In this document: positions 4,032 through 50,510 of the stretch, piece after piece
How the letters are laid out: the number at the start of each line of letters is the position of its first letter
How positions within the stretch are numbered: the first letter of the stretch is position 1
Source: a virus
Taxonomy: Duplodnaviria; Heunggongvirae; Uroviricota; Caudoviricetes
Reading direction: 5' to 3' (one strand)
IMG/VR virus record: IMGVR_UViG_2778261534_000002
Length of the DNA: 52,137 nt
Made by a program: the position numbers and the translations under genes
Notes under the pieces: generated by a model
Databases searched by the model: none
The model's input: only the letters and a program-made list of their open reading frames with translations
Told to the model about the DNA's origin: nothing

Positions 4032-4399
4032 TGACCATCTCTGTTTTAGACCGCCTGAAATTAGGTAAAGAGCTATCAGATCTAATGCAGGCGCAGAAAA
4101 CTGCGCCAGTATTGCAACGCGTCACCATTGGTAAGCAGATTGTTGATGTGATGCTGAAATTGGGCCTGGGGACTGCCGCGCAACCGGCAGCGGAACCGCA
4201 ACAACAGACTGATCCTATTGTAGATGAAGTCCCTAAGATAGTGACTGACTTCCTGGGCGGTGTGTTCACAAAGTCCACACAAATGGAATTTATTGATGCG
4301 CTGCGTGGGATCTCAAACTATGTTGGCGAGTTCCTTACGTTGGAGCAGGCTAAAGAGCAGACCATAAGCTGGGTGAAAGCTAACGGTTATGCCGGGTAA
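4031..4399 (+). CDS. DdrA-like small virion protein
   Basis: 122 aa, start overlaps darA-like stop, followed by intrinsic terminator; assigned by synteny. Confidence 0.35.
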   Translation: MTISVLDRLKLGKELSDLMQAQKTAPVLQRVTIGKQIVDVMLKLGLGTAAQPAAEPQQQTDPIVDEVPKIVTDFLGGVFTKSTQMEFIDALRGISNYVGEFLTLEQAKEQTISWVKANGYAG

Positions 4400-4402
4400 T
4401 CA

Positions 4403-4428
4403 AAAGGGGCTGAAATGCCCCTTTCACT
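4403..4428 (+). terminator. rho-independent terminator
   Basis: GGGGC-tgaaat-GCCCC stem followed by TTTCACTT. Confidence 0.5.
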
Positions 4429-4481
4429 TATCTGTTCTCACATAAATCACACACTTTTTACACTCACAGCTTTCTCTATAG

Positions 4482-5879
4482 TTGGAGTGTATTTTGAACA
4501 AATCAGTTACTTCTGCGCTTTCCGAGGCCGCAGATATTAACAGCGTCATTGCTCTGGTTTCTTCATTAGAGAGGAAAGAAACACGCCTGGGGCGAAGTAG
4601 CTACGTAGTCACCAGCAAAGGTGCAGAGGTAAAGACGGCTTTTAAGGTCGTTGACGCCAGCAGTCTGATCATTTCGAACAACCTTGACGGTGCGATTAAC
4701 CCGGCCTTCCCGGAAGAACTCCAACCACGAGATCGTACCCGGCTATCCAGCAAACTCCAGGTTAACCGTATTGCCTCCAATTTACGCCCGGCACAATTAA
4801 CGGATTCCGGTATGAGCAGCCACGGAGCGCCTATAGTTGGTCCGGACAACGTTGTTGAATCCGGCAACGGAAGGAGTATGGGTATCTGGCGTGCCTATGA
4901 GCAAGGACAGGCGGATGAGTATCGCCAGTACCTGATCGACCATGCGAAAGAGTTTGGTCTGAATCCTGACGAAATTTCGCAAATGTCTATGCCCGTACTG
5001 GTGCGAGAAAGACTCACAGATGTAGACCGCGCTCAATTTGCCCGCGATTCAAACATTAGTGATCTGCAAGAGATGGCAGCAAGTGAAAAAGCGTATGCGG
5101 ATGCGCAATTTCTCACTGAGAGCGTCATGGCGCTATTTAATCCTTCAGATGATGGAAATCTGCTGGCGCGGTCCAATGATGCGTTTATTCGTGCGTTTTT
5201 GCGCGAAATTGGCGATACAGCGATGGCAGGCTTGCTTACTGCCGATGGGCGTCCCACGAAACAGCTTATCGATCGCATCCAGAATGCAATTTTTGCCAAA
5301 GCGTACAAGGATGAAAGGCTTGTTCGGCTGGTGTCGGAAGAGCCAGATCCGGAAATGCGTAATATCCTGACCGCATTAAATACGGCAGCCAGCGATTTTG
5401 CGCAAATGCAGTCGCTGTCTGGCGACGCTCACCATGACGCAGTAACAGGCTTAGTGGACGGTATAGAGCAGGTTAATGGCCTGGATACACAGGCGATAGC
5501 AGCACTCCAGGAAGCAATTAATCTTGTTCGTGAAGCCAAAGACAACGGTCAGGCCGTTGAAGAAGTGATCGCCCAAAGGGGGTTATTCGGCGACAGTACA
5601 CCGGAAGCTGAGGCATTGGCGCTATTCATCGTAGCAAATAATCGCAGTGCGAAGCGTATGGGGGCAGCATTCAAAAAAATGGCGCAAAAAATCAACGACG
5701 AGCTGACTCATAAACAACAGGCATTGGGCGATATGTTCGGCGGTGGCGATGTTGATCTGCGTCGTATTTTGTCTGCTGTATCTGATGAAATTGAGGGTGA
5801 ATTTGGCGAAGGGAAAGGTCTGAACTTTGCTATGTTTGAAAATTCTACAGATCTAAATAATTGCCGTACGGAAAACTAA
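4482..5879 (+). CDS. virion-associated protein (DdrB-like?)
   Basis: 465-aa ORF (track start is TTG; true start uncertain), acidic C-terminus, between dar-like genes and portal-like gene. Confidence 0.35.
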   Translation: MECILNKSVTSALSEAADINSVIALVSSLERKETRLGRSSYVVTSKGAEVKTAFKVVDASSLIISNNLDGAINPAFPEELQPRDRTRLSSKLQVNRIASNLRPAQLTDSGMSSHGAPIVGPDNVVESGNGRSMGIWRAYEQGQADEYRQYLIDHAKEFGLNPDEISQMSMPVLVRERLTDVDRAQFARDSNISDLQEMAASEKAYADAQFLTESVMALFNPSDDGNLLARSNDAFIRAFLREIGDTAMAGLLTADGRPTKQLIDRIQNAIFAKAYKDERLVRLVSEEPDPEMRNILTALNTAASDFAQMQSLSGDAHHDAVTGLVDGIEQVNGLDTQAIAALQEAINLVREAKDNGQAVEEVIAQRGLFGDSTPEAEALALFIVANNRSAKRMGAAFKKMAQKINDELTHKQQALGDMFGGGDVDLRRILSAVSDEIEGEFGEGKGLNFAMFENSTDLNNCRTEN

Positions 5880-5943: not shown

Positions 5944-7626
5944 ATGGCAACGAAAGACAAAAACAAAGGCTTTCTGTCAGCATTGAAGAAAGCCTTCAAC
6001 GGTGGTGATGTTACGCCCGCCGATCCGGTCGTTTTTACGAGCGGGCATAGTGTCGTTGCTCGTTCCGGCCTGTCTGCTTTACGCCCAGGTATACTGGGGA
6101 GCAACAGCGATGGCATGACGAGTGCAGCAGATTCAATTTCTTTATCCTCTGAACTGCCCGGCGAGCGCCTGCAAAAGTACAACATCCTGGAAACGATGGC
6201 TAAAAGCCCGACTATCTCGACGGCTTTAAATATTCACATTGCACATGCGCTTGCGCCTTCAAAAAAAACCGGACAAGCATTCATCCTTTCGCCAAAGGAT
6301 GGTTCCGATGCTGAGGCAGTAAGTAGATGTGAAGAGTTAACTGCTGATTTGGGGGCGATGATTAATGACGGACTTCCTTCATGGGCCATGATTATGGCGA
6401 TCTTTGGGGTGTCTTATGTCCGCCCTTATGCTGAACAGGGCAGGGGGATAACAGGCATTGAGTCCAGTTATTACACTCTGCCACACTTCGTCCAGGAGTT
6501 TTATCGTGGTAGCCAGCTGGTAGGTTTCAGTGGTGATTACATCCTGGATACGCATAGTTTGCGCAGAGTAATAACCGAACCGTGGAATCTGGTTTCCATG
6601 AAAAATCCCTATTGGACGCCGCAGCATAAAGTTATTCCGGTCAGCTACGGCACAAAAGGGTACTCACTGTTAAGTGAGCAGGCTGATAAGCCGTTAATGG
6701 AGACGCAGAATTACGGAACTTCATTCCTTGAATACAGCTATGAACCTTACCTGAATTTATGTGCTGCGCTCGCCGCGCTGAAATCAACGCGAAATAATGC
6801 AGCCAAAATTGACCGCCTGATTGCTCTTACGACGAACACACTGGACCCGGTTAATGCGGCGAACTATACGCGTGGCGTCAGCCAGGCATTGAAGCGACAT
6901 AGTGACCTGGTGGCGCAAAGGTCGATTAATGCCAACGCTATTCCGACGGTGCTTAACCACCTGATACCTGTTATGGGAGACGGGAAGAACGGTATCACTA
7001 TTGATACGCAATCCATACCCGCAGATATCAGTGGTATCGAAGACGTTATGTTTCACCTCCGGCAGCTTGCTGCAAGCCTAGGCATTGACGCAACAATGCT
7101 TGGCTGGGCTGATCAGATGAGTGGTGGACTTGGGGAAGGCGGTTGGCAGCAAACAGCTATCCAGGCCGCATTACGTGCGAACTGGATCAGACAGGCCGCG
7201 CAGCGAACTATTTATCGGCTTCATGATATTCACCTCGCTTATAAATACGGGAAGGTTTACACCGAAAAAAACCGTCCTTATGACGTGCAATTCAACTCAA
7301 TGAACACTGCTATCCAGGAAGAGGAAAACCGGGAACTGGATGCACGCGCCAACTTTGTTGCTGTCATCTCCCAAATTATGGACCAGATCCAGAACAACCC
7401 GAAACTGGCTGGTAGTGACGCGTTTATGCGTTATCTGTTCACCGAGCAGTTGCACATCGACGATGACACTCTCAACACCATGATCAAAGAGTTTAAGGCG
7501 AATGAATCAGAGCAAAACAACGAGCATGGTATGTACGAATCCGCGCCGTTGTCGTCCGGTGACGATCCGGAAAACTGGACGCCAGAACAGTTAATAAACT
7601 TTGCAAAATTTGTGATGAGCAATTAA
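5944..7626 (+). CDS. portal-like head protein (Prt-like)
   Basis: 560 aa; size and position immediately upstream of a head-processing-like gene; call by synteny, not motif. Confidence 0.4.
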   Translation: MATKDKNKGFLSALKKAFNGGDVTPADPVVFTSGHSVVARSGLSALRPGILGSNSDGMTSAADSISLSSELPGERLQKYNILETMAKSPTISTALNIHIAHALAPSKKTGQAFILSPKDGSDAEAVSRCEELTADLGAMINDGLPSWAMIMAIFGVSYVRPYAEQGRGITGIESSYYTLPHFVQEFYRGSQLVGFSGDYILDTHSLRRVITEPWNLVSMKNPYWTPQHKVIPVSYGTKGYSLLSEQADKPLMETQNYGTSFLEYSYEPYLNLCAALAALKSTRNNAAKIDRLIALTTNTLDPVNAANYTRGVSQALKRHSDLVAQRSINANAIPTVLNHLIPVMGDGKNGITIDTQSIPADISGIEDVMFHLRQLAASLGIDATMLGWADQMSGGLGEGGWQQTAIQAALRANWIRQAAQRTIYRLHDIHLAYKYGKVYTEKNRPYDVQFNSMNTAIQEEENRELDARANFVAVISQIMDQIQNNPKLAGSDAFMRYLFTEQLHIDDDTLNTMIKEFKANESEQNNEHGMYESAPLSSGDDPENWTPEQLINFAKFVMSN

Positions 7627-10214: not shown

Positions 10215-10439
10215 ATGGTTAATGCCAATCCTTGCTCACGCCCAGAATTCATCTGGCGTTTCCACTCCCTGCAAAAACACTGCGATCACTTCGCAATTGC
10301 CGCAACCGAAAAAGAAGCCCGTTCTCTGATCCCTGATCAGTATGGTGTTCTTACTGGTCGTTTCTCTACTTCCCCACAACCAAACACTAATCCCTGGTAT
10401 CGCAATATTACCAATCCCGGAATTGCGGAGGCACACTGA
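10215..10439 (+). CDS. Icd-like small protein of immunity module 1
   Basis: 74 aa; paralog of 49339..49554 (shared EFIWRF and AATE-EARS motifs); stop overlaps ant start (TGATG). Confidence 0.5.
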   Translation: MVNANPCSRPEFIWRFHSLQKHCDHFAIAATEKEARSLIPDQYGVLTGRFSTSPQPNTNPWYRNITNPGIAEAH

Positions 10440-11146
10440 TGGAAATCTGCATTCTTGAAAAGCCATCAATGACCAGCATTGAGATCGCGGAGCTGGTGGG
10501 AAGTCGCCCGGATAACGTTAAACGCACTATTGAACGCTTGAGTAAATCAGGTGTTATTCCACTTCCTCCAATGGAGGTTTCCGAAAATATCAATAACTTA
10601 GGATTTAAAGTTAAAAATTCACACTACGTCTTCGAAGGCGAGCAAGGCAAGCGTGACAGTATCATTGTCGTTGCGCAGCTTTCTCCCGAATTTACCGCCC
10701 GGCTGGTGGACCGCTGGCGCGAACTGGAAGAACAAGTACGCCAGCCGTTGACCGAAATAGAGATGATCGCCGCAATGGCTGCAAATGCAGTTCAGCAGCA
10801 AAAGCGGCTTCATGTTGTTGAGTCAAAGGTTAGCCAGGTGGTAGAAACCGTCGAGCAAATCAAGAAGGGCAACATGCCAGATGGTTACATTGGCTACCGC
10901 CAGCTGGCTGCGAAATGTGGCCTGACCGAAGCCAAATGCCGCAACCTTGTCAACGCTTACCGGATTCCCACCGATACACATGAGTTTTTAACTCCAGAGG
11001 GGGTATTGTCGCGTCGTTCCATCGTGGCCTTATCTCCCTTCATGAATGCTTTTAACCGGATGATGTCGGAGGCTGAACACCGAGGAAAACGCTGGTATCA
11101 CCCCAAAATGGGGCAATTCCAGGTGATCGGTTGGGGAGGTGAGTGA
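10439..11146 (+). CDS. ant: antirepressor (Ant-like)
   Basis: 235 aa; N-terminal SIEIAELVG...PDNVKRTIE region typical of Rha/Ant-type phage regulators; paralog of 49554..50480; translationally coupled to icd-like gene. Confidence 0.55.
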   Translation: MEICILEKPSMTSIEIAELVGSRPDNVKRTIERLSKSGVIPLPPMEVSENINNLGFKVKNSHYVFEGEQGKRDSIIVVAQLSPEFTARLVDRWRELEEQVRQPLTEIEMIAAMAANAVQQQKRLHVVESKVSQVVETVEQIKKGNMPDGYIGYRQLAAKCGLTEAKCRNLVNAYRIPTDTHEFLTPEGVLSRRSIVALSPFMNAFNRMMSEAEHRGKRWYHPKMGQFQVIGWGGE

Positions 11147-11343
11147 TGGACATCATGCAGGCGGTAAAAAAAATCAGGGAAGGACAGGCTGAAGTGTGCC
11201 GCCGTAAAGCATGGAGTGTTGGTGTATGGGCCTGGCCTGATAATTACTCTACTACCGGATGGTTTTGTATTAATGGACTCCAGGTCCGGGAAGTTGATTT
11301 ATCGACGGCTGATATAGTCGGTAATGATTGGATCGTGACTTGA
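11143..11343 (+). CDS. small DUF2829-like protein
   Basis: 66 aa; CRRKAW...GNDWIVT signature shared with four other domains in the window; start overlaps ant stop. Confidence 0.45.
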   Translation: MMDIMQAVKKIREGQAEVCRRKAWSVGVWAWPDNYSTTGWFCINGLQVREVDLSTADIVGNDWIVT

Positions 11344-11351
11344 AGCGTGAT

Positions 11352-11376
11352 GCCCCGGCCTGGCCGGGGCTTTTTT
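11352..11376. terminator. bidirectional intrinsic terminator
   Basis: GCCCCGGCC-tgg-CCGGGGC then TTTTTT, between convergent genes. Confidence 0.65.
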
Positions 11377-20822: not shown

Positions 20823-22046
20823 GTGACGGGAACAGCAATGAGTCAACACACTGATACTTCTAATCTGGAAATTATCTCGACAGCAATTGAAACGCTGCGC
20901 ACACAAATCGCTCTTATACAGAAACGGAATCCGGGTGATGACCTGTCAAAGCGACTGCACGAGAGTGTCATTGCCACTACAGATAACCTGGTGGCGGAAA
21001 TCAACAAGCTGCTTGATGATGGGGCAGTTGATTACAATAAGCTGGTGGATCAGTTTGAGGAATACCAACAAGCCGTTAATGATGGCTTGATCCGTTTTTC
21101 ACAAGTCACAGGCGTATCAGCGACAGTTGAAAGCCTGGGTGATGCAGTTAATCAATTTGCCGCGAATATGCGTAATGAGATCGGCAATCTGGAAGCGCGT
21201 CTTGAACAGGCAAATACACTGCGTAAATCTGCCGAAGCCGATTTGAACCGTTACAAAAAAGACTATCCGCCCAGCCTGACAAAGCGGCTGGATGTTGCGG
21301 AGAAGGATAACCGCGCGCTGAAAAGAGAGCGCCGGGAACTAAAAGAGCGTTTAACCAAGCTCAATCAGCAATGCATTGATTATCAAGGCGAAGGCGTCAC
21401 ACTGCGTAAAAAGTTGGCTACAGCGCAGAGCATTATCGAAACATTAAAGCGAGAGTGCTCACAGCTTGGTCACGATCTGAACCGTGCTTGTGGCATGGGA
21501 CAAAGACCAGAGACATTTCCACTCATGTATGATGGAAGGGATGCCATTGCCTACATCCATGAGTATCCGCACGGCCTGGTTGCGGAAACAGGGCAGCGTG
21601 GCGAAGCACTGTTGACGGCTAATTACCATCAACAAATCAGAACCAATCGCCTGTTAACGATGGATGTGATCCCATCGGTATGGGGAACGCCGCTTTACTA
21701 TCGCCTGCCGGGCTTCGAAAAGGACTGGAATACCGACATAGACGAATGTCTCGCAGATAAAATTATGGCGTACCTGGAGACGGATTTTCCGCGCTTATAT
21801 CGCCGGATTATGGACTCTAAGGATGCGCCAATCGATGAATTAAAAATGCGTCCGGAGACGCTGGAGGCAATCAAGCAGACGGAGTTTGATACTGTATTCA
21901 GTGTGGCCTGCATTCCAAGCTGTTTCCATGAAAGCATCCCGTTCATGCAAGGAGATCGTCGTCAGGAAATCATTGACGCTTGCCGGGTATGGGCGAACGA
22001 ATGGGATAAGAAGAATGGGGGTGTAGAAGATCTTTATGGGAAATAA
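20823..22046 (+). CDS. hypothetical protein, N-terminal coiled coil
   Basis: 407-aa ORF (probable start ATG 20838); coiled-coil N-half, Cys/His-containing C-half; no recognizable catalytic motif. Confidence 0.5.
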   Translation: MTGTAMSQHTDTSNLEIISTAIETLRTQIALIQKRNPGDDLSKRLHESVIATTDNLVAEINKLLDDGAVDYNKLVDQFEEYQQAVNDGLIRFSQVTGVSATVESLGDAVNQFAANMRNEIGNLEARLEQANTLRKSAEADLNRYKKDYPPSLTKRLDVAEKDNRALKRERRELKERLTKLNQQCIDYQGEGVTLRKKLATAQSIIETLKRECSQLGHDLNRACGMGQRPETFPLMYDGRDAIAYIHEYPHGLVAETGQRGEALLTANYHQQIRTNRLLTMDVIPSVWGTPLYYRLPGFEKDWNTDIDECLADKIMAYLETDFPRLYRRIMDSKDAPIDELKMRPETLEAIKQTEFDTVFSVACIPSCFHESIPFMQGDRRQEIIDACRVWANEWDKKNGGVEDLYGK

Positions 22047-22047
22047 T

Positions 22048-22062
22048 GTGTTAGAAATCTAA
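22048..22062. promoter_or_regulatory. operator-like 15-bp motif
   Basis: GTGTTAGAAATCTAA. Confidence 0.35.
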
Positions 22063-22203
22063 AATCACAATTCGAATGTATTGATTGTGGAGATAACTTA
22101 ACATAGAATTTTCCTTGCTGGTGGGCAGTACCCACGTTTCGCTTGCTGGGCTTGATAGTCACTTATTGGTTATTGTTCGCCCACCAGCATTTAACAAATT
22201 AAA

Positions 22204-22218
22204 GTGTTAGAAAAGGAT
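22204..22218. promoter_or_regulatory. operator-like 15-bp motif
   Basis: GTGTTAGAAAAGGAT. Confidence 0.35.
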
Positions 22219-22699
22219 GGTAATGCAAGAGCACGCTTTGGCACCGTGCAGGCCAAAGTTCAGCAGGTTTAGTGCGGAAAGTGGTTTCAGAGAGAGCACT
22301 TTGCGGAGTAAACGACAATACATGTTGAGCCACGGAAGGTCTTTTTAAGGTGTTCATTGATGATGGTCCGGCAGAGAGTAACGGTACATGCTGCATCTAA
22401 TCATCAATGCACATCTTCAACATTAAGGAGGCATAGGGATTTTTGTGGCGGTTACCTTTTGCCCTGAGTCTCCTTAATGTTGCGGTAATGCACCTATGCG
22501 GATGTGGCCTTGCATTGTGTCTTGAAAGAATGGGGTAAGGCCGGGGATATCCCCAGGGGGAGGCACCCCCGCTGCAACGAACAGCCACAGACGGCAGTCG
22601 AGTGATGGAAACGTGTAAAGACTTTAAACCTCGTTACGGCTGGCGTGGCAAACGCGACAACCGAGACAGAGCGGTGACGGGCGGAGAGAGTGCCGCATC

Positions 22700-22820
22700 A
22701 AGAAAGAAGCCGACTTGTGATCCCTTTCTGCGGGCATTTGAAAGTGAATCCAGCTCAGGCAGTCGGCTTCTTTCTTGTGTGAGATGTAGCGTATTTGCCC
22801 ATCTTCGGGTGGGCTTTTTT
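22700..22820 (+). ncRNA. candidate structured small RNA
   Basis: perfect 16-bp inverted repeat AAGAAAGAAGCCGACT (22700-22715) / AGTCGGCTTCTTTCTT (22761-22776) around a 45-nt loop, then hairpin GCCCA-N8-TGGGC plus TTTTTT (22797-22820). Confidence 0.3.
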
Positions 22821-23280
22821 AGGGTTTTCGTCATGGTTAGCGACTTTGCGGCGGTTTAGAAACCGACCATTAAAGTAAATGCAAACGATGATCTGATGAT
22901 GGTAGCGGCCTAAGAAGCCAGACGCCACGGGGTATGAGTCGTCCCCCGTCAAAAAATCGACCGCAGAGTGTCCCCGTCTGTGTATTAGGGAACGGGGAGG
23001 CATAACAGGCAAGGGCGCTGGTGTGATTAACCAGATGAATGAGAAGGGTCAGGTCTTTCTGGTCAGCGCCCTTACCTGTTACGTCCCTCCCGCGTAACAG
23101 CCATTGATTAATGGCTTTCTGGGATAACATCCTACTACGGGTATATCCCGTCATGCTGAAGGCGCTAATCACGCTGGAAGCCAGGGTTGTGCATCCCCTG
23201 TTACCGAATTGCAGCCAGGGCGCGGTGCGCCGAAAAGCATACGGAGGTGGAAGCCCTCGCCGGAGACGTACCCGGCAAGT

Positions 23281-23357
23281 GATGGTGTAGCTCAGTAGGA
23301 TAGAGCAGCAGCCTTCTAAGCTGTCGGTCGGTGGTTCGAATCCACCCACCATCGCCA
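23281..23357 (+). tRNA. tRNA-Arg (anticodon UCU)
   Basis: 77 nt; 7-bp acceptor stem GATGGTG/CACCATC, anticodon loop CTTCTAA, T-loop GGTTCGAATCC, 3' CCA. Confidence 0.9.
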
Positions 23358-23362
23358 ATTTA

Positions 23363-23449
23363 GGGGAGTTAGTCCGTAGGGGTAGCGGGGTAGACTGTAA
23401 ATCTACTGTCATTGCGACTCGGGTGGTTCGACTCCATCACTCCCCACCA
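23363..23449 (+). tRNA. tRNA-Tyr (anticodon GUA), long variable arm
   Basis: 87 nt; acceptor GGGGAGT/ACTCCCC, anticodon arm GTAGA-CTGTAAA-TCTAC, variable-arm stem GTC/GAC, 3' CCA; D-arm atypical. Confidence 0.7.
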
Positions 23450-23453
23450 AATT

Positions 23454-23529
23454 GCCGGTTTAGCTCAGTTGGTAGAGCGCCTGCCTTGTAAGCAGGATGT
23501 CAGCGGTTCGAGTCCGTTAACCGGCACCA
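23454..23529 (+). tRNA. tRNA-Thr (anticodon UGU)
   Basis: 76 nt; TAGCTCAGTTGGTAGAGC D-arm, anticodon loop CTTGTAA, T-loop GGTTCGAGTCC, 3' CCA. Confidence 0.9.
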
Positions 23530-23580
23530 ACACAACAGGTAAGGGCATTCTCCCTTATGGGGCTTGGCTTAAATGCATCG

Positions 23581-23609
23581 AGTGCTCTTACCGTTGTGAT
23601 GAAGTGCAG
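23581..23609. repeat. 30-nt spacer repeat, copy 1
   Basis: AGTGCTCTTACCGTTGTGATGAAGTGCAG; related copies at 23811 and 24112. Confidence 0.5.
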
Positions 23610-23724
23610 CTCTTTGAAGCAACCAGAAGATAAGCATCTGGCTTCACAACATAAACCGCAGGAACGACCAATAAACGGTAGTCCGTATGGAGAACACCCC
23701 GTTGAGGAAGAGGCCTGGCCGGAA

Positions 23725-23741
23725 CCGTAACCGGCACCACA
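23725..23741. repeat. duplicated tRNA-Thr 3' end fragment
   Basis: CCGTAACCGGCACCAC repeats the 3' end of tRNA-Thr (CCGTTAACCGGCACCA, 23514-23529) about 210 nt downstream. Confidence 0.45.
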
Positions 23742-23810
23742 ACGTTGAGAACACTGGCGTAACGGGGTCATATCCCAATCTATGAATAAATGTTGCGTTG
23801 CAGCGTGACA

Positions 23811-23844
23811 ACCAGTGTTCTCAACATTGTGGTGAATGCACAGG
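23811..23844. repeat. 30-nt spacer repeat, copy 2
   Basis: CCAGTGTTCTCAACATTGTGGTGAATGCACAGG; its first 16 nt are also the reverse complement of AACGTTGAGAACACTGG at 23741-23757 (large stem-loop). Confidence 0.45.
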
Positions 23845-23931
23845 CTGATGTGCCGCAACTACAGTAGTGCGCGCTTTGCGGGGCTTGCTACAACCCTGTG
23901 TCGGAGTTCAGCACCGACCATCACAATCACT

Positions 23932-24018
23932 GGAGAGTAGGGAGCATGGTGCTCAAGCGGTCTTGAAAACCGTCCCATTGCGCAAGCGATGATGGTTCGA
24001 TTCCATTACTCTCCGCCA
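23932..24018 (+). tRNA. tRNA-Ser (anticodon UGA), long variable arm
   Basis: 87 nt; acceptor GGAGAGT/ACTCTCC, anticodon loop CTTGAAA, T-loop GGTTCGATTCC, 3' CCA. Confidence 0.85.
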
Positions 24019-24111
24019 GTGCAACGTTAAGAGTATTTGGCTAATTAAGCGAATGCCGGAAGCAGAACCGGATCACCAAATGCGTACAGGCGTCATCGCC
24101 GCCCAGCCAGC

Positions 24112-24142
24112 CAAGTGCTCTTACCATTGCGGTGAATGCGGC
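24112..24142. repeat. 30-nt spacer repeat, copy 3
   Basis: CAAGTGCTCTTACCATTGCGGTGAATGCGGC. Confidence 0.5.
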
Positions 24143-24281
24143 TAAGCGCACGCGGAACAGTTAAAACAATCCTCCTTAGTGGTTAAGTCAAACATCCCGG
24201 CGTTAATTGTTAACTGGTTAACGTCACCTGGAGGCACCAGGCACCGCAGCTTTTTTATTCGGTAAATAATGGAGTGAGAGG

Positions 24282-24518
24282 ATGCAGAACAATCCGAACA
24301 AATGTCGAACGCTATGGGTGCGGTTATATATTTATGTCGTCCTCTGTTTGATTGTGTCACTGGTTCTGTATGTTTGGCTTTTGCCAAATATGATCTCATC
24401 TGACAGCACAATACTTGTATTGTTGGGAGTCCTTCTCGCGCTCATTTACCCGGCTTTTGCAGTAGTCTTTTTTCGTGAAAAAACCAGGAAATTGATTAAT
24501 GAAAAAAACGTTGATTAG
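24282..24518 (+). CDS. small integral membrane protein
   Basis: 78 aa, two hydrophobic helices, SD GGAGTGAGAGG before ATG; overlaps start of the SPFH lipoprotein gene. Confidence 0.45.
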   Translation: MQNNPNKCRTLWVRLYIYVVLCLIVSLVLYVWLLPNMISSDSTILVLLGVLLALIYPAFAVVFFREKTRKLINEKNVD

Positions 24519-25326
24519 TGCAGCGATTATTTTTGGTTCTTTATGTCTGACCGGATGCGATCGGGTAGAGCCAGGTAACGTAGGGATCAAAGTAAATAAG
24601 CTGGGGGATGATAAAGGTATCGGTGAAGTAGTTGGCGTTGGTCGCTACTGGACAGGCTTGAATACTGAAGTTTATATCTTCCCGACCTTTAAGCAAATGA
24701 AGACATACGATGAGCCGTTCAGCTTCCAGATGAGCGACGGAACAACCATTGGTTACCACATCGGCGTAGCCTACAAGGTTGATCCAGCAAAAGTCACAAC
24801 GGTATTTCAGACCTATCGCAAAGGTGTAGATGATATTACTGATACCGATCTACGCCAGAAGGTTGCAGATGCTCTGAACCGGTTAGCCAGCAAAATGACC
24901 ACCGACAAATTTATCGACGGTGGCAAATCTGAATTGCTTGATGCAGCCCTTAAAGACATTCAGGAAGAAATGACGCCCATCGGTATTCAGGTAATGAGCC
25001 TCTCATATGTGGGCAAGCCGGAGTACCCGCCAACCGTTATCGACAGCATTAATGCCAAAGTCACGGCGAACCAGAAAACTCTGCAACGCGAGCAGGAAGT
25101 CAAGCAACGCGAAGCAGAAGCCAACATGCTGCGCGCAGAAGCTGCTGGACAGGCCGATGCCATTCGCACAAAAGCCCAGGCTGAAGCTGATGCCATTCGT
25201 TTACGCGGTGAGGCTCTGCGCCAGAACCCCGGCGTTATGGAGTTGGAAGCGATCAACAAATGGAACGGAACGCTACCGCAGTATATGACCAGTAATACCG
25301 CTGTTCCGTTTGTTCCGGTGAAATAA
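24499..25326 (+). CDS. SPFH/band-7 (prohibitin-like) lipoprotein
   Basis: 275 aa; signal peptide with lipobox LTGC; SPFH-like core followed by Ala/Glu-rich coiled-coil tail. Confidence 0.65.
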   Translation: MKKTLISAAIIFGSLCLTGCDRVEPGNVGIKVNKLGDDKGIGEVVGVGRYWTGLNTEVYIFPTFKQMKTYDEPFSFQMSDGTTIGYHIGVAYKVDPAKVTTVFQTYRKGVDDITDTDLRQKVADALNRLASKMTTDKFIDGGKSELLDAALKDIQEEMTPIGIQVMSLSYVGKPEYPPTVIDSINAKVTANQKTLQREQEVKQREAEANMLRAEAAGQADAIRTKAQAEADAIRLRGEALRQNPGVMELEAINKWNGTLPQYMTSNTAVPFVPVK

Positions 25327-25339
25327 CCAAATAGATAAC

Positions 25340-25471
25340 ATGATGGAATTTTGGACGTTTGCCGACAAGAACCCTTGGTGGACATTTTTATTTCTGCTGG
25401 TGGTTGCATATGGGGTCGAGCAAGCAGCAAAAGCCTTACGCGGTCCTGGCAAAAAGCGTAAGCGGAATTAA
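25340..25471 (+). CDS. small membrane protein (43 aa)
   Basis: MMEFWTFADKNPWWTFLFLLVVAYGV...KKRKRN; single TM helix with basic tail; below the ORF-track length cutoff; found by eye. Confidence 0.3.
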   Translation: MMEFWTFADKNPWWTFLFLLVVAYGVEQAAKALRGPGKKRKRN

Positions 25472-25480
25472 CAGTAATCT

Positions 25481-25556
25481 GGCCCTTTAGCTCAGTGGTT
25501 AGAGCTGGCGACTCATAATCGCACGGTCACCGGTTCAAGTCCGGTAGGGGCCACCA
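25481..25556 (+). tRNA. tRNA-Ile2 (anticodon CAU, lysidine type) or tRNA-Met
   Basis: 76 nt; very close to E. coli ileX-type sequence as recalled (GGCCC.TTAGCTCAGTGGTTAGAGC...CTCATAA...GGTTCAAGTCC...GGGGCCACCA). Confidence 0.85.
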
Positions 25557-26010
25557 TATTTGGTTGTAACACGGCGTCTGGCACATGCGTCGTTAGCGGT
25601 CTGGTGACGTTAAAGGGGTATCTTTGACTCTTGCTCAGGCAAACGGACCAGGTAGCCGGAATGTGCAAGCCCCGATAACAGTGGCGGACCGAGGACTCAC
25701 CATCCTGGCGATTCGGTGTGACAGCCGGAAGAGCACGGCGCACAACAGGAAAAGGCGTTTAATTAGCGTGAGCGCCGTTTCCGTTGTGGTAATTGCGGCT
25801 ATGCGCTCGTGACGAAGCCATTTTTATTCACTACGTTCTGATAAGTGACGTCGCCAGGAGTGGCTAACCTGGCAGGTGGAGGCACCACCGCCACAACTCC
25901 TTTCAATTCATCATATAGCCGCTCAGGCTGTACCCCTTAATTAATACGAATTTACGACATCACTACCGGCACTTCCGGGGGATAGTCGCGCGTGTAAAAA
26001 AGGAGACGTT

Positions 26011-26586
26011 ATGTTAATGGCGAACGATAACGCATATGCAGAAGAAGATCTCATTTTGAGTGACTTCATAGGGAAGCGGGAACGCTGGACCCAAAAGCGA
26101 GAGGAACTTTACGCCTCATTAGTTCGCAAAGGCGTCAATATCGAAACCGCACAGAGCGGCGATATGACAGTGGTAAGCGTTGGATTGCACGGTGTAAGCG
26201 TGTCAGCAATCAATCATGAGCCATACGTTGCGTTATCCGAGTCAATGGTAAGGTTAGTTAAGTTCCTGAAGTACACAGAAGCGAATAATGTAATCATTGG
26301 CAAAAAGAATATCCCTTTTTCCTCGGCTTTTTACTGGATGATGAAAGGGCTTGATGCCCGGCGGACATCATGGCCTAAAGGGAGCTATATATCGATGTTC
26401 CGTGGCAGCATTGGCAGCAAAGAAAAGCTCTTCGAATTCTTGCCGGAAGAGGCATTCGATATTGTGGAAGGGTGCGATGTGATGGTGATGCCTCGCCTGG
26501 TAATGATGAATGGGGATTTACAGGCGCAGACAGACTGGTTTGCAACTGGTGTGGATATTATCGCGACTGACTGGGAGGCTTTCTGA
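26011..26586 (+). CDS. hypothetical protein with C-terminal DUF2829-like domain
   Basis: 191 aa; C-terminal ~90 aa carry KGLDARRTSW ... IIATDWEAF signature. Confidence 0.45.
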   Translation: MLMANDNAYAEEDLILSDFIGKRERWTQKREELYASLVRKGVNIETAQSGDMTVVSVGLHGVSVSAINHEPYVALSESMVRLVKFLKYTEANNVIIGKKNIPFSSAFYWMMKGLDARRTSWPKGSYISMFRGSIGSKEKLFEFLPEEAFDIVEGCDVMVMPRLVMMNGDLQAQTDWFATGVDIIATDWEAF

Positions 26587-26978
26587 TGTACGGGACTACC
26601 AAATTAAGCACTCAACAGGCCACCAATATGGAGTGGTCTATCGCTAACTGTAAGATCGTGTCATGCAATGCCACGCGTACTGATGTGGGCCATAAAAGCA
26701 CTATAACAGGCTATCTAGTAATGACCACCAGGGGGATGAGGGTTAGATTTCGCTGGAAAGCAGAGCAAGTAACGCCATTCAGAGAGCCATCAATGCCGCT
26801 GCAGGTTGAGCAGGATTATCTATGTTTACCAGAAATAGATGGAGGAATGCTGGTGGAGTCTGATGGTAGTAAGGCTGATTTTGAAGCCAATTTGAAGCTG
26901 GCACAGGCCGTAATCAATAGTTATCGCGGAAAGTGGATCGCAAAAGTGAAACATGTTGTTCGTTTGTCTCGCTGGTAG
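26586..26978 (+). CDS. hypothetical protein
   Basis: 130-aa ORF whose start overlaps the preceding stop; no recognizable motif. Confidence 0.4.
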   Translation: MYGTTKLSTQQATNMEWSIANCKIVSCNATRTDVGHKSTITGYLVMTTRGMRVRFRWKAEQVTPFREPSMPLQVEQDYLCLPEIDGGMLVESDGSKADFEANLKLAQAVINSYRGKWIAKVKHVVRLSRW

Positions 26979-27086
26979 TATTAGGTGTTTAATATTAATT
27001 TTCTAATACAATCATCTTTTTACCAGTCTATACAGTTTTAACATTCTCATTATCATCCCCTCGGTCATTTCCTGCCCGGGGGATTA

Positions 27087-27479
27087 ATGGAACAAATCAG
27101 CAGCGCAGAAATTGCGGATATCATGATCAGGGCTGACTGCTATCTGACAGTCACTGAAATTACCACTCTCGCCAAAGAAAAATACCCTCATCTCCATGTT
27201 TCACGAGTAAGTGTAACTAACATCATTCGTCATTTTGTTCGTTCAAGCAGGGCAATCTGTGAGCTGGATGATCGTGTGTATCCACGAAAATACTGGCTAC
27301 ATGGTCTGAACGGATATCAGTTCAAGGTGCGCGGGCGCACGCCTGAATACGGTAGCTTACTGGTTAAAAACTGTAGCAGGAAATCAGTCGAACAGGCGCG
27401 AAAAGAGCAACGAGAGCTGGTGGACATGGCGAATAAGCTGTGGAATGCCGCCGTTAAAAAGCGTGGTGTTGCTTTATGA
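27087..27479 (+). CDS. Lpa-like late promoter activator (tentative)
   Basis: 130 aa immediately upstream of pacA and overlapping its start, the position of lpa (gene 10) in P1; no motif-level support. Confidence 0.3.
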   Translation: MEQISSAEIADIMIRADCYLTVTEITTLAKEKYPHLHVSRVSVTNIIRHFVRSSRAICELDDRVYPRKYWLHGLNGYQFKVRGRTPEYGSLLVKNCSRKSVEQARKEQRELVDMANKLWNAAVKKRGVAL

Positions 27480-35728: not shown

Positions 35729-35944
35729 AATACTGGAAGCACTTTGTCTGCTACCAAGCATTCTCTGTTTAAGCACAACCATTTCCTGACGGCATAACAC
35801 AGCAATAGCGGTCCTGGCACCAATTTGCTTACCAACCAGGTATTGCTTTACCTCGCGGCGACTCACGCCATCAAGAAGCATCTTTAACGCTTCACGGGAC
35901 AACTTGTTGTATTTACGTGCCATTAATCTACTCCGCAGAACCAT
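35726..35944 (-). CDS. hypothetical small protein downstream of doc
   Basis: 72-aa ORF overlapping doc 3' end; basic, HTH-like. Confidence 0.3.
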
Positions 35945-36308
35945 ACAATCTACGTAACGTGTCGGCGACAGAAGATACAGATATCTCGCCAGTCGCAGCG
36001 CCTACAGTAAGGTCTGCCAGTTCAGGTGAATCAAATACCTGCACCCCGTTACGGCGTAGAAATAGCAGCGCACTGTTTAGCGCGGTACGCTTATTGGCAT
36101 CATTGAATATATGCCCTCTCGCTGTAGCCACCAGGTAGGTGGCGGAGACTTCGAAAAGGTCGCTGATCTCTTCGTAGGCAACTCTGGCCTGAACTCTCCC
36201 GATAATGGCCTCTGCCCTACCCGGATCTGACATTCCCGGCAGGCCACCGTAGCGGCTTATATTCGCATCATGAAGCGCAATAAGTTCTTCCGGTGATATA
36301 TGCCTCAT
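35928..36308 (-). CDS. doc: Doc toxin (Fic-fold kinase) of phd-doc addiction module
   Basis: 126 aa; matches P1 Doc as recalled, including HIFNDANKR Fic-like motif; overlaps phd stop. Confidence 0.9.
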
Positions 36309-36529
36309 TATCGGTTAACCAGTTCCTTGTTGGTGGAGTCCAGGGTGTCAAACAGGGATGCAAATTCGGCATCCAGCGCCGCTTTTTTGTAGGCTTCAAA
36401 AGTAGCCTTGCTAACAATTACTGCTGGCTCACGGCCTCTGCGGGTGATTTCAACCTCTTCCCCGGCTTCAACATTGTTGAGCACTTCAGAAAGGTTGCCG
36501 CGCGCGGTACGGAAGTTAATGGATTGCAT
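36308..36529 (-). CDS. phd: Phd antitoxin
   Basis: 73 aa from [13 protein letters not shown] (track ORF starts 2 codons earlier); matches P1 Phd as recalled; GTGTACAC-type palindromes upstream. Confidence 0.9.
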
Positions 36530-49338: not shown

Positions 49339-49554
49339 ATGGCTACTATCCCCACCCCAACTCATTCTGAATTTATCTGGCGTTTCTATTCCTGCCAAAA
49401 ACACCTCTATATCTGCGTCATGGCTGCAACCGAAGCAGAAGCGCGCTCATACCTTCCCGAAGAACCCTGCATTTTTGCTGCTCGCTTCACTCTTGATGCG
49501 ATGGAGATCCTCAATTACTGGAATCTGCCGATGAACTGCGTGGAGGTGCACTGA
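49339..49554 (+). CDS. Icd-like small protein of immunity module 2
   Basis: 71 aa; paralog of 10215..10439; SD AAGGAGG; stop overlaps ant start. Confidence 0.5.
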   Translation: MATIPTPTHSEFIWRFYSCQKHLYICVMAATEAEARSYLPEEPCIFAARFTLDAMEILNYWNLPMNCVEVH

Positions 49555-50480
49555 TGAATCTGTCCATCTCTCAAAAAGCGACAATGACCAGCATTGAGAT
49601 CGCGGAACTGGTAGGTAAGCGCCCTGATAACGTTAAACGCACCATTGAACACCTGGCGGAACGGGGGGTAATATCTTTTCCTCAAATTGAGGAAAAGCCC
49701 ACCGCAGGCCGCCCGGCGAGCTATTACGTCTTCGAAGGCGAGCAAGGCAAGCGCGATAGTATTGTCGTCGTCGCACAGCTCTCTCCCGAATTTACCGCCC
49801 GGCTGGTGGACCGCTGGCGCGAACTGGAGAATGCCCGGGTACAGTTAAAATCAAAAGCCGAAATCCTGGCTGAAATGGCGCAAATGCATCTTGAGCATGA
49901 ACGCCGGATCAACGCCGTTAATGCCCAGGTAGCCGAAGTATCGGCACAAGTGTCCAAAGTCGCTGAAACCGTCGAGCAAATCAAGAAAGGCAATATGCCG
50001 GAAGGCTACATTGGCTACCGCCAGCTGGCGGCGAAATGTGGCCTGACTGAAGCCAAATGCCGCAACCTTGTCAACGCTTACCGGATTCCCACCGATACGC
50101 ATGAGTTTTTAACTCCAGATGGTTTGCTTGCGAGACGCTCCATTGTGGCCCTGGCCCCCTTCCGGAAAGCCTTTAAGCAGGTGATGTCGGAGGCAGAACC
50201 ACGCAATAAACGCTGGTATCATCCAAAGATGGGGATGTTTCAGGCAATCCACCATCCTGTGCCTGAAAGTCCAAAGGCAAACCTGTCGTTGCATACCGCC
50301 AGAGAGAGGATTAAAACAGGGTATGCAATCGTATGCCGTCGAGCATCTTGGCCTGAAGGTGTATGGGTATGGCCCGAAGGTGGATCACGAAAGCACTGGC
50401 GCACTATCCGGGATGGGAAAATCCATGCGATTGATTTAGCTCCAGAGGATGTTGTTGCTACGGACTGGATTGTTAGTTAA
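49554..50480 (+). CDS. antirepressor (Ant-like) fused to C-terminal DUF2829-like domain
   Basis: 308 aa; first ~235 aa paralogous to 10439..11146; last ~60 aa (CRRASWPEGVW ... VATDWIVS) paralogous to the separate 66-aa ORF 11143..11343. Confidence 0.55.
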   Translation: MNLSISQKATMTSIEIAELVGKRPDNVKRTIEHLAERGVISFPQIEEKPTAGRPASYYVFEGEQGKRDSIVVVAQLSPEFTARLVDRWRELENARVQLKSKAEILAEMAQMHLEHERRINAVNAQVAEVSAQVSKVAETVEQIKKGNMPEGYIGYRQLAAKCGLTEAKCRNLVNAYRIPTDTHEFLTPDGLLARRSIVALAPFRKAFKQVMSEAEPRNKRWYHPKMGMFQAIHHPVPESPKANLSLHTARERIKTGYAIVCRRASWPEGVWVWPEGGSRKHWRTIRDGKIHAIDLAPEDVVATDWIVS

Positions 50481-50488
50481 TTACTGTT

Positions 50489-50510
50489 GCCCCGGCCTGT
50501 CCGGGGCTTT
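50489..50510 (+). terminator. terminator-like hairpin
   Basis: GCCCCGGCC-tgt-CCGGGGC, near-identical to the hairpin at 11352; only a short T-run follows. Confidence 0.45.

Follow-up and report, generated by a model that had tools for sequence, protein, structure and literature searches.

A putative two-domain Tad2 sponge gene and an optional orphan gene in a D6-like phage-plasmid

Introduction

Tad2 proteins have been tested as sponges for 3'cADPR, His-ADPR, N7-cADPR, cGG/cGAMP and cUMP/cCMP. The characterized members (SPO1 gp34.65, HgmTad2/AcrIIA7, SptTad2 and MoTad2) are small, acidic, phage-borne proteins made of a single domain of ~90-100 aa. In SPO1 Tad2, residues W25, N26, W73 and D79 hold 1''-3' gcADPR, and the ligand contacts of HgmTad2 are W21/N22 and S90/T92/D93. 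Acb4, a sponge with a fold like the double-stranded RNA-binding motif (dsRBM), binds 3'3'-cGAMP by its β3-α4 loop. Fusions of Acb4 to Tad2 are reported to be frequent in phages, with one found to block type I Thoeris as well as type I CBASS, and Pasteurella phage Pm86 carries a tested fusion sponge. Here, we describe a pair of genes, designated gene 1 and gene 2, in a Caudoviricetes sequence of 52,137 nucleotides (IMG/VR record IMGVR_UViG_2778261534_000002), the whole of which is called the window below, and propose from sequence comparison that gene 1 adds to the Tad2 sponge family a protein of two domains whose pocket is altered.

The second system to which the locus can be compared is the ban operon of phage P1, whose layout is Pban/Oban (Op72), a dicF-like element, trnA and trnT, tciABC, trnI and ban, the last encoding a DnaB-type helicase. 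In the wild-type P1 prophage, ban is not known to be expressed unless the operator is mutated, as in bac mutants. In the P1 record, Pban with the divalent C1 operator Oban heads the operon and is annotated as controlling ban 2.6 kb downstream. Neither ban nor the tRNAs are mentioned in a paper on the P1vir transcriptome. A preliminary description of the window had suggested that the gene pair may be expressed independently of the repressor regulon, possibly in the lysogen.

Results

A Tad2-like domain at the C terminus of gene 1

The prediction that gene 1 ends in a DUF2829-like domain held. Its residues 103-190 pass the hidden Markov model (HMM) of Pfam PF11195 (Tad2-like, formerly DUF2829) at the curated threshold (39.1 bits against a cutoff of 25; E 1.1e-9) over profile positions 3-72 of 73, and all full-length homologues of gene 1 carry a precomputed PF11195 assignment. 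A family profile of 16 members, with identities down to 41%, yielded three matches against the whole Protein Data Bank (PDB), all of them Tad2 (SptTad2, 8wjd; SPO1 Tad2, 8sme and 8wje). The scores are weak but specific (E 0.097 for 8wjd and 0.5 for 8sme and 8wje), the alignments span the full length of the solved proteins (residues 3-97 of 101 and 3-88 of 90), and hhalign comparison with Tad2 agrees with this search (E 0.0009-0.003).

By alignment, the core of the ligand pocket appears to be kept and two polar contacts to be replaced. W121, W176 and D182 are the counterparts of SPO1 W25, W73 and D79 and are invariant in the gene 1 family; of the four SPO1 residues in contact with gcADPR, both tryptophans and the aspartate are thus retained. 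The polar contacts lost, two in all, are those of the Tad2 WN motif, which reads WP in gene 1, and of the SPO1 T78 position, where gene 1 has a valine; when the HgmTad2 motif PSQTD is aligned with ATGVD, the S/T/D trio becomes T179/V181/D182. Gene 1 further differs from the characterized Tad2 proteins by ~100 extra N-terminal residues and by a β2-β3 insertion of ~28 aa, intermediate in length. Because Tad2 homologues are known to diverge in specificity, a changed ligand is as plausible as a loss of binding.

Two other places in the window show a weak likeness to Tad2, a 65-aa open reading frame (ORF) at 11146-11343 (PF11195 15.9 bits, under the cutoff) and the C-terminal ~60 residues of a Rha/Ant-like protein of 308 aa at 49554-50480. 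Both lie within a diverged, duplicated module of ~1.1 kb (10245-11373 and 49369-50510).

An N-terminal domain outside known families

The N-terminal half of gene 1 is confidently modelled as an α/β domain with the elements of the Acb4 fold, namely helices, three antiparallel strands and a long C-terminal helix in a dsRBM-like arrangement. Its nearest architectural parallel is the Acb4-Tad2 fusion Pmp13_0045 of a Pasteurella phage (185 aa, PF13876 at 5-80 and PF11195 at 99-184), in which length, domain order and domain boundaries are almost those of gene 1. However, the N-terminal domain of gene 1 is not detectable as Acb4 by HMM or profile-profile comparison, and membership of that family found no support in these searches. 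Pfam PF13876 did not match gene 1 at E≤1 (the positive controls SPO1 gp1.3 and Pmp13_0045 both match), hhalign against SPO1 Acb4 (gp1.3) gave E 0.14, and hhalign against an 8-sequence Acb4 profile also gave E 0.14, on a non-equivalent segment. Gene 1 appears, then, to resemble an Acb4-Tad2 fusion in architecture and fold class, and its N-terminal domain on present profiles falls outside known families.

In Foldseek searches, the phage ABA sandwich domain (PDB 1r7l; PF18066), the double-stranded RNA-binding domain (dsRBD) and HPF folds resembled this domain in their α/β/α topology, with probabilities up to 1.0, target-normalised TM-scores of 0.5-0.6 and E values all above 1e-3. The domain differs from these folds in having no HMM match to them and in being acidic (isoelectric point, pI, 5.3), with no dsRBD-type basic patch visible by eye; a role in binding double-stranded RNA was set aside on the grounds of this acidity and of the missing basic helix motif.

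In Alcaligenes phage QDWS595 (locus L028, positions 1-929), a DUF2829 gene adjoins a separate Acb4-family gene just upstream of the terminase, which is the unfused version of the Acb4-Tad2 pairing.

Two coupled genes, the second of them optional

The two ORFs of the preliminary description (26011-26586 and 26586-26978) were recovered exactly, on the + strand, and are coupled through a TGATG stop/start overlap. Gene 1 is preceded by the Shine-Dalgarno sequence AAGGAG at 26000-26005, with its ATG 5 nt further on, and gene 2 by GGGAGG at 26573-26578, within the last codons of gene 1, with its ATG 7 nt further on. The eight loci with both genes, one of them a Raoultella element, all share an identical junction and gene 2 Shine-Dalgarno sequence. 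In comparisons with relatives, the ratio of nonsynonymous to synonymous substitution rates (dN/dS) was 0.09-0.10 in gene 1 and 0.11-0.32 in gene 2, about three times that of lpa (0.03-0.04 at comparable divergence, and 0.12 for the most distant locus). Purifying selection thus acts on both genes, with somewhat relaxed constraint, and they are genuine genes rather than chance ORFs. They are also the most divergent genes of their block, and the pair is accessory and fast-evolving in character.

Gene 2 is an orphan. It had no match in Pfam, NCBIfam or PADLOC and no PDB relative by sequence or profile search, PHROGs returned the unannotated phrog_7004 alone, and tblastn against sequenced phages gave phage D6 as the sole homologue. 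A deep HMMER search of 1.84 billion representatives retrieved 11 proteins, the full-length ones of ~130 aa and with identities down to 30%, in which the invariant positions include W17, C22, W57, Q61, G115, W117 and K120. The AlphaFold model is unusable (predicted local distance difference test, pLDDT, 43.9). In more distant D6-like elements, a gene 1 homologue lies upstream of lpa and gene 2 is absent; gene 2 is therefore an optional add-on and not an obligatory partner. In two loci without gene 2 (L009:5613-5776 and L014:5574-5736), the TGATG junction is retained at the end of gene 1 and opens an 18-codon ORF ending before the lpa operator-like motif, which may be what is left of gene 2 or may predate its acquisition.

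These properties bear on a different reading of gene 1, in which the DUF2829 fold would serve no sponge but a toxin with gene 2 as its partner, an AcrIIA7-like inhibitor, or an RNA binder acting, for example, on its own leader hairpin. We hold this to be quite unlikely, although several observations speak for it. Homologues were formerly named 'MW1434 family type I TA system toxin' (toxin-antitoxin, TA) by PGAP, the first report of a DUF2829 protein was of an anti-CRISPR, two ligand-contact positions are altered, the opposite charges of the two proteins (pI 5.0 and 9.4) would suit a complex, and a dsRBD-like N-terminal fold coexists with a 19-bp hairpin in the leader. However, the toxin name derives from a purely bioinformatic list for Staphylococcus aureus and has been replaced in RefSeq, NCBIfam and PADLOC have no match for gene 1, and a protein of 191 aa that is acidic and not hydrophobic (grand average of hydropathy, GRAVY, -0.07) led us to reject a type I toxin of this family. 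The occurrence of gene 1 without gene 2 argues against an obligatory toxin-antidote pair, and the element has phd/doc-like genes elsewhere (ORFs at 35928-36529). E. coli is without Cas9, and the N-terminal domain is acidic, with a second helix in which no dsRBD-type basic patch is visible by eye.

A conserved place in D6-like plasmids

The window is essentially phage D6. Positions 25475-27200 are 98.6% identical to this Escherichia phage, a P1-family plasmid prophage, and gene 1, gene 2, Lpa and the repressor are 100% identical as proteins to D6 orf6, orf5, Lpa and C1. Both genes are annotated as 'hypothetical protein' in the D6 record. In the 2026 RefSeq annotation of E. coli plasmids, gene 2 keeps this name and gene 1 is a 'Thoeris anti-defense Tad2 family protein', so that the DUF2829/Tad2 assignment of gene 1 is already present in current names. 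Of 5426 complete E. coli genomes, 98 have the pair, in each case on a plasmid of ~90 kb, and 119 plasmids of E. coli, Salmonella and Shigella in PLSDB hold at least 80% of 25481-27090, from the tRNA to the gene 2-lpa spacer.

The pair does lie, as had been described, between a tRNA-Ile2 gene and the gene for Lpa: the tRNA is identical to P1 trnI, and the downstream neighbor (27087-27479) is Lpa by its match to PF25716 (E 5e-57). In every relative examined, lpa-pacA-pacB and the divergent repressor gene follow the pair directly.

The pair at the distal end of a probable ban-like operon

The P1 operator consensus ATTGCTCTAATAAATTT gave one chance-level match in the window and was abandoned for a D6-type operator-like motif derived from repeats in the window, AATTARTTTTCTAACA with at most 3 mismatches, which occurs 14 times against 1.0 expected. 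The preliminary description was right that no such motif precedes the pair in the 454-nt leader; the nearest copies lie at 22049 and 26993. The upstream copy (22049-22064) is conserved after the pmgS-like gene in D6 and in two relatives (L002 and L006). Close to it lies TTGATT-17-TAGAAT, the sole σ70-like site on the + strand in 21900-27028, and everything from 22049-22109 to gene 2 is co-directional. Within this block, 22794-23925 and 25470-25742 are ~89-91% identical to the P1 ban operon (P1 coordinates 68855-69916 and 70922-71200), the first of them to its upstream part (~90%).

The locus therefore has the composition of a P1-type operon, in which an operator and a σ70 promoter precede co-directional, homologous tRNAs and genes, and it shares with P1 the backbone, an identical tRNA-Ile2, the layout and an operator-like motif with a promoter at the head. 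It differs in its distal cargo (gene 1 and gene 2, where P1 has ban), in running directly into lpa-pacAB, in a D6-type rather than P1-type operator, and in an SPFH gene where P1 has tciA/B. The last, a gene for an SPFH/Band-7 lipoprotein (24499-25326; PF01145, E 1e-30) flanked by small membrane-protein ORFs, occupies the tciA/tciB position of D6 as well as P1 and is the chief difference from D6 in this block.

No σ70-like promoter was found in 25481-26030, even at 8/12 matches or with an extended -10, and a terminator scan found none between gene 2 and lpa, so that constitutive transcription of the pair would continue toward lpa. Because the leader has no promoter by these scans, the block is homologous to P1, the P1 record annotates Oban as the ban operator, and the site at 22049-22109 is conserved, we read the pair as distal cistrons of a repressor-controlled early operon. 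On the same evidence, the proposed independence from the repressor regulon is not supported, and expression in the lysogen is unlikely, a judgment made from sequence rather than from transcripts.

The place of the pair immediately 5' of lpa-pacAB, kept in every relative, could instead point to late transcription, either from an Lpa-dependent promoter in the leader or by late read-through, and to a role at packaging or another late stage. We think this very unlikely. The lpa gene has its own operator-like motif and promoter-like site 3' of the pair, in parallel to P1 Olpa/Plpa. P1-type late promoters need a -10 hexamer and a 9-bp inverted repeat, and P1 LPpac has no counterpart in the leader, a weak test since a scan starting from this single P1 example and a palindrome upstream of 719 gave no enriched motif and hence no D6 late-promoter consensus.

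The leader is conserved and contains a maintained helix

The leader between the tRNA and gene 1 is unusually conserved. The tRNA and the next 186 nt are ~89% identical to the P1 trnI-ban segment, and sequence identity between the window and loci L002/L016 is 86% in the leader but 75% in lpa, 65% in gene 1 and 63% in gene 2. It had been described as structured, and this holds in part. The whole-leader fold is no better than that of shuffled sequence (z = -1.36), whereas a 19-bp helix is 100% paired across the alignment despite variation at 8 of its pairs (compensatory at 2 and one-sided at 6). In an alignment of 7 leaders, 5 of 127 consensus pairs are compensatory against 3.0 ± 1.1 in shuffles, which is modest evidence of covariation since the sequences are few and related. 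The loop of the 19-bp helix holds a 61-nt insertion in L002/L016, and its core was flagged by the terminator scan, but a real T-tract is absent after the helix. No Rfam family was found in the leader, with only noise at E≤10. The leader is probably a functional RNA, serving processing or translational control.

The preliminary description would imply that the pair forms an operon of its own, transcribed from a promoter in the leader independently of the repressor regulon and expressed in the lysogen to protect or modify the host, for example as a moron. The 3.9 kb upstream of gene 1 that are free of the operator-like motif fit such an arrangement, and a leader conserved to this degree could hold regulatory DNA. 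In addition, in lysogens of the E. coli prophage Kapi1, no prophage gene is expressed more highly than its Tad2-like gene, a finding that also counts against a pair silent in the lysogen. Against autonomy, the stretch before gene 1 is without a σ70-like promoter even at relaxed thresholds. The leader starts directly at the 3' end of the tRNA, and its homologue in P1 lies inside the repressor-controlled ban operon. Between gene 2 and lpa, which encodes the late activator, there is no terminator, and the compensatory changes in the leader stems fit an RNA rather than a promoter. An autonomous operon is, on balance, unlikely.

Some features of the leader and tRNA block stand apart from these questions. 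Two copies of the hairpin motif GGNGGAGGCACCNCCGC lie within this + strand block (22556-22572 and 25875-25891; 0.06 copies expected). Their stems differ by a compensatory G:C to T:A change, and the motif could be a repeated RNA processing or protein-binding site of the long operon. The 25557-25742 segment is present in ~600 further P1-like plasmids, and a ~175-nt copy of it without the tRNA adjoins yfdP in a prophage-like E. coli plasmid (L029). The D6 RefSeq record (L001) leaves the CAT tRNA unannotated though the sequence has one (~6006-6081), and lists the other tRNAs (~4315-5020) on the strand opposite to the flanking genes; ARAGORN puts the window tRNAs on the + strand. Among the latter, tRNA-Ser(TGA) falls just under the Rfam tRNA-Sec threshold (44.6 against 47), an STnc100-like match is also sub-threshold (39.4 against 47), and a 23-nt element is present three times. 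The features of the locus are collected in Table 1.

Table 1. Coordinates of the gene pair and of associated features in the window
Feature	Position	Strand	Remarks
Operator-like motif TTTTAGATTTCTAACA, 3 mismatches	22049..22064	-	Head of co-directional tRNA/early block; candidate equivalent of P1 Oban/Op72
σ70-like promoter TTGATT-17-TAGAAT	22081..22109	+	Candidate promoter of the long operon; conserved in D6, L002 and L006
23-nt repeats among tRNAs	23581/23814/24114		Side feature
tRNA-Ser(TGA)	23931-24015		Side feature
STnc100-like match	24128-24248		Side feature
tRNA, anticodon CAT	25481..25556	+	76/76 identical to P1 trnI (annotated tRNA-Ile2)
Non-coding leader, 454 nt	25557..26010	+	First 186 nt homologous to P1 trnI-ban leader
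19-bp hairpin (helix 11)	25741..25788	+	Arms 25741-25761 / 25769-25788
Hairpin with GGTGGAGGCACCACCGC motif (helix 16)	25870..25893	+	Invariant; second copy at 22556-22572
Small hairpin CCGG-N5-CCGG (helix 17)	25966..25978	+	~20 nt 5' of gene 1 Shine-Dalgarno; one compensatory change
Gene 1	26011..26586	+	191 aa, acidic (pI 5.0); N-terminal α/β and C-terminal Tad2-like domains; phrog_7362
Gene 1 N-terminal domain	26029..26286	+	Residues 7-92; α-α-β-β-β-α, dsRBD/Acb4-like fold; no sequence family
Gene 1 C-terminal Tad2-like domain	26317..26580	+	Residues 103-190; PF11195
Stop/start overlap TGATG	26584..26588	+	Kept in 8 loci
Gene 2	26586..26978	+	130 aa, basic (pI 9.4); orphan family; phrog_7004
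Operator-like motif, gene 2-lpa spacer	26993..27008	+	Marks lpa's own repressor-controlled start

Discussion

Our data favor a reading in which the pair consists of a Tad2-like sponge gene and an optional orphan, expressed as the distal cistrons of a repressor-controlled early operon, and we give this reading as a whole a probability of about 0.5. By analogy with tested Tad2 proteins, the Tad2-like half of gene 1 would assemble as a homo-oligomer with pockets between subunits, and these pockets would sequester a nucleotide-derived immune signal of the host (a cyclic nucleotide, for instance, or an ADP-ribose derivative of the Thoeris type) and thereby keep the host effector from being switched on. 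The N-terminal half may add a second binding or oligomerisation module, and gene 2 is probably a further counter-defense or partner protein, the weakest step of the model. By analogy with P1, the pair would take the place of ban at the distal end of a long, tRNA-containing early operon, the operator-like motif and promoter at 22049-22109 playing the part of the C1-repressed Pban, and the leader would be co-transcribed with the tRNA and probably serve precursor processing or translational control. The pair would then stay silent in lysogens, and its proteins would be made early upon infection or induction, when a signal sponge would be needed.

Several observations weigh against this reading. 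Concerning gene 1, the counterpart of SPO1 N26 is P122, nearly invariant in the family, and that of SPO1 T78 (HgmTad2 T92) is V181, so the pocket may bind another ligand or none. The AlphaFold monomer has pLDDT below 50 at residues 93-130 and 157-191, most of the Tad2-like domain. In the N-terminal domains of 7 diverse members, PF13876 and PF18066 are unmatched at E≤10, and ~11 residues of the Acb4 β3-α4 ligand loop are deleted from gene 1 in the hhalign alignment. For gene 2, genomic context is the sole source of the suggested role. Concerning expression, the operon model draws on the analogy with P1 and on consensus scans, and the leader could hold non-consensus or Lpa-dependent promoters. 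The operator-like motif at 22049-22064 has 3 mismatches in the window. In addition, a hairpin at 22797-22814 that resembles a strong terminator stands between the pair and its proposed promoter; P1 has the homologous sequence, and antitermination is suspected in the P1 literature.

A more ambitious version of the sponge hypothesis would make gene 1 a dual sponge, its N-terminal domain a new signal-binding module and its WP/V pocket adapted to another ligand, with gene 2 an anti-defense protein or a partner and the leader RNA controlling processing or translation. We regard this combination as speculative and, taken together, unlikely to hold.

Assigning the pair to the position of ban, in a tRNA operon under repressor control, predicts when its proteins are made and argues against a moron expressed in the lysogen. 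Phage D6 is in culture. D6-like phage-plasmids are carried by ~2% of complete E. coli genomes and occur in Salmonella and Shigella too. To our knowledge, no counter-defense factor has been characterized in the P1-family phage-plasmid lineage. Should gene 1 act as a sponge, this would make it a counter-defense factor of a P1-family phage-plasmid, and its altered pocket, together with an N-terminal domain that belongs to no known family, could extend the ligand range and the domain repertoire of these sponges.

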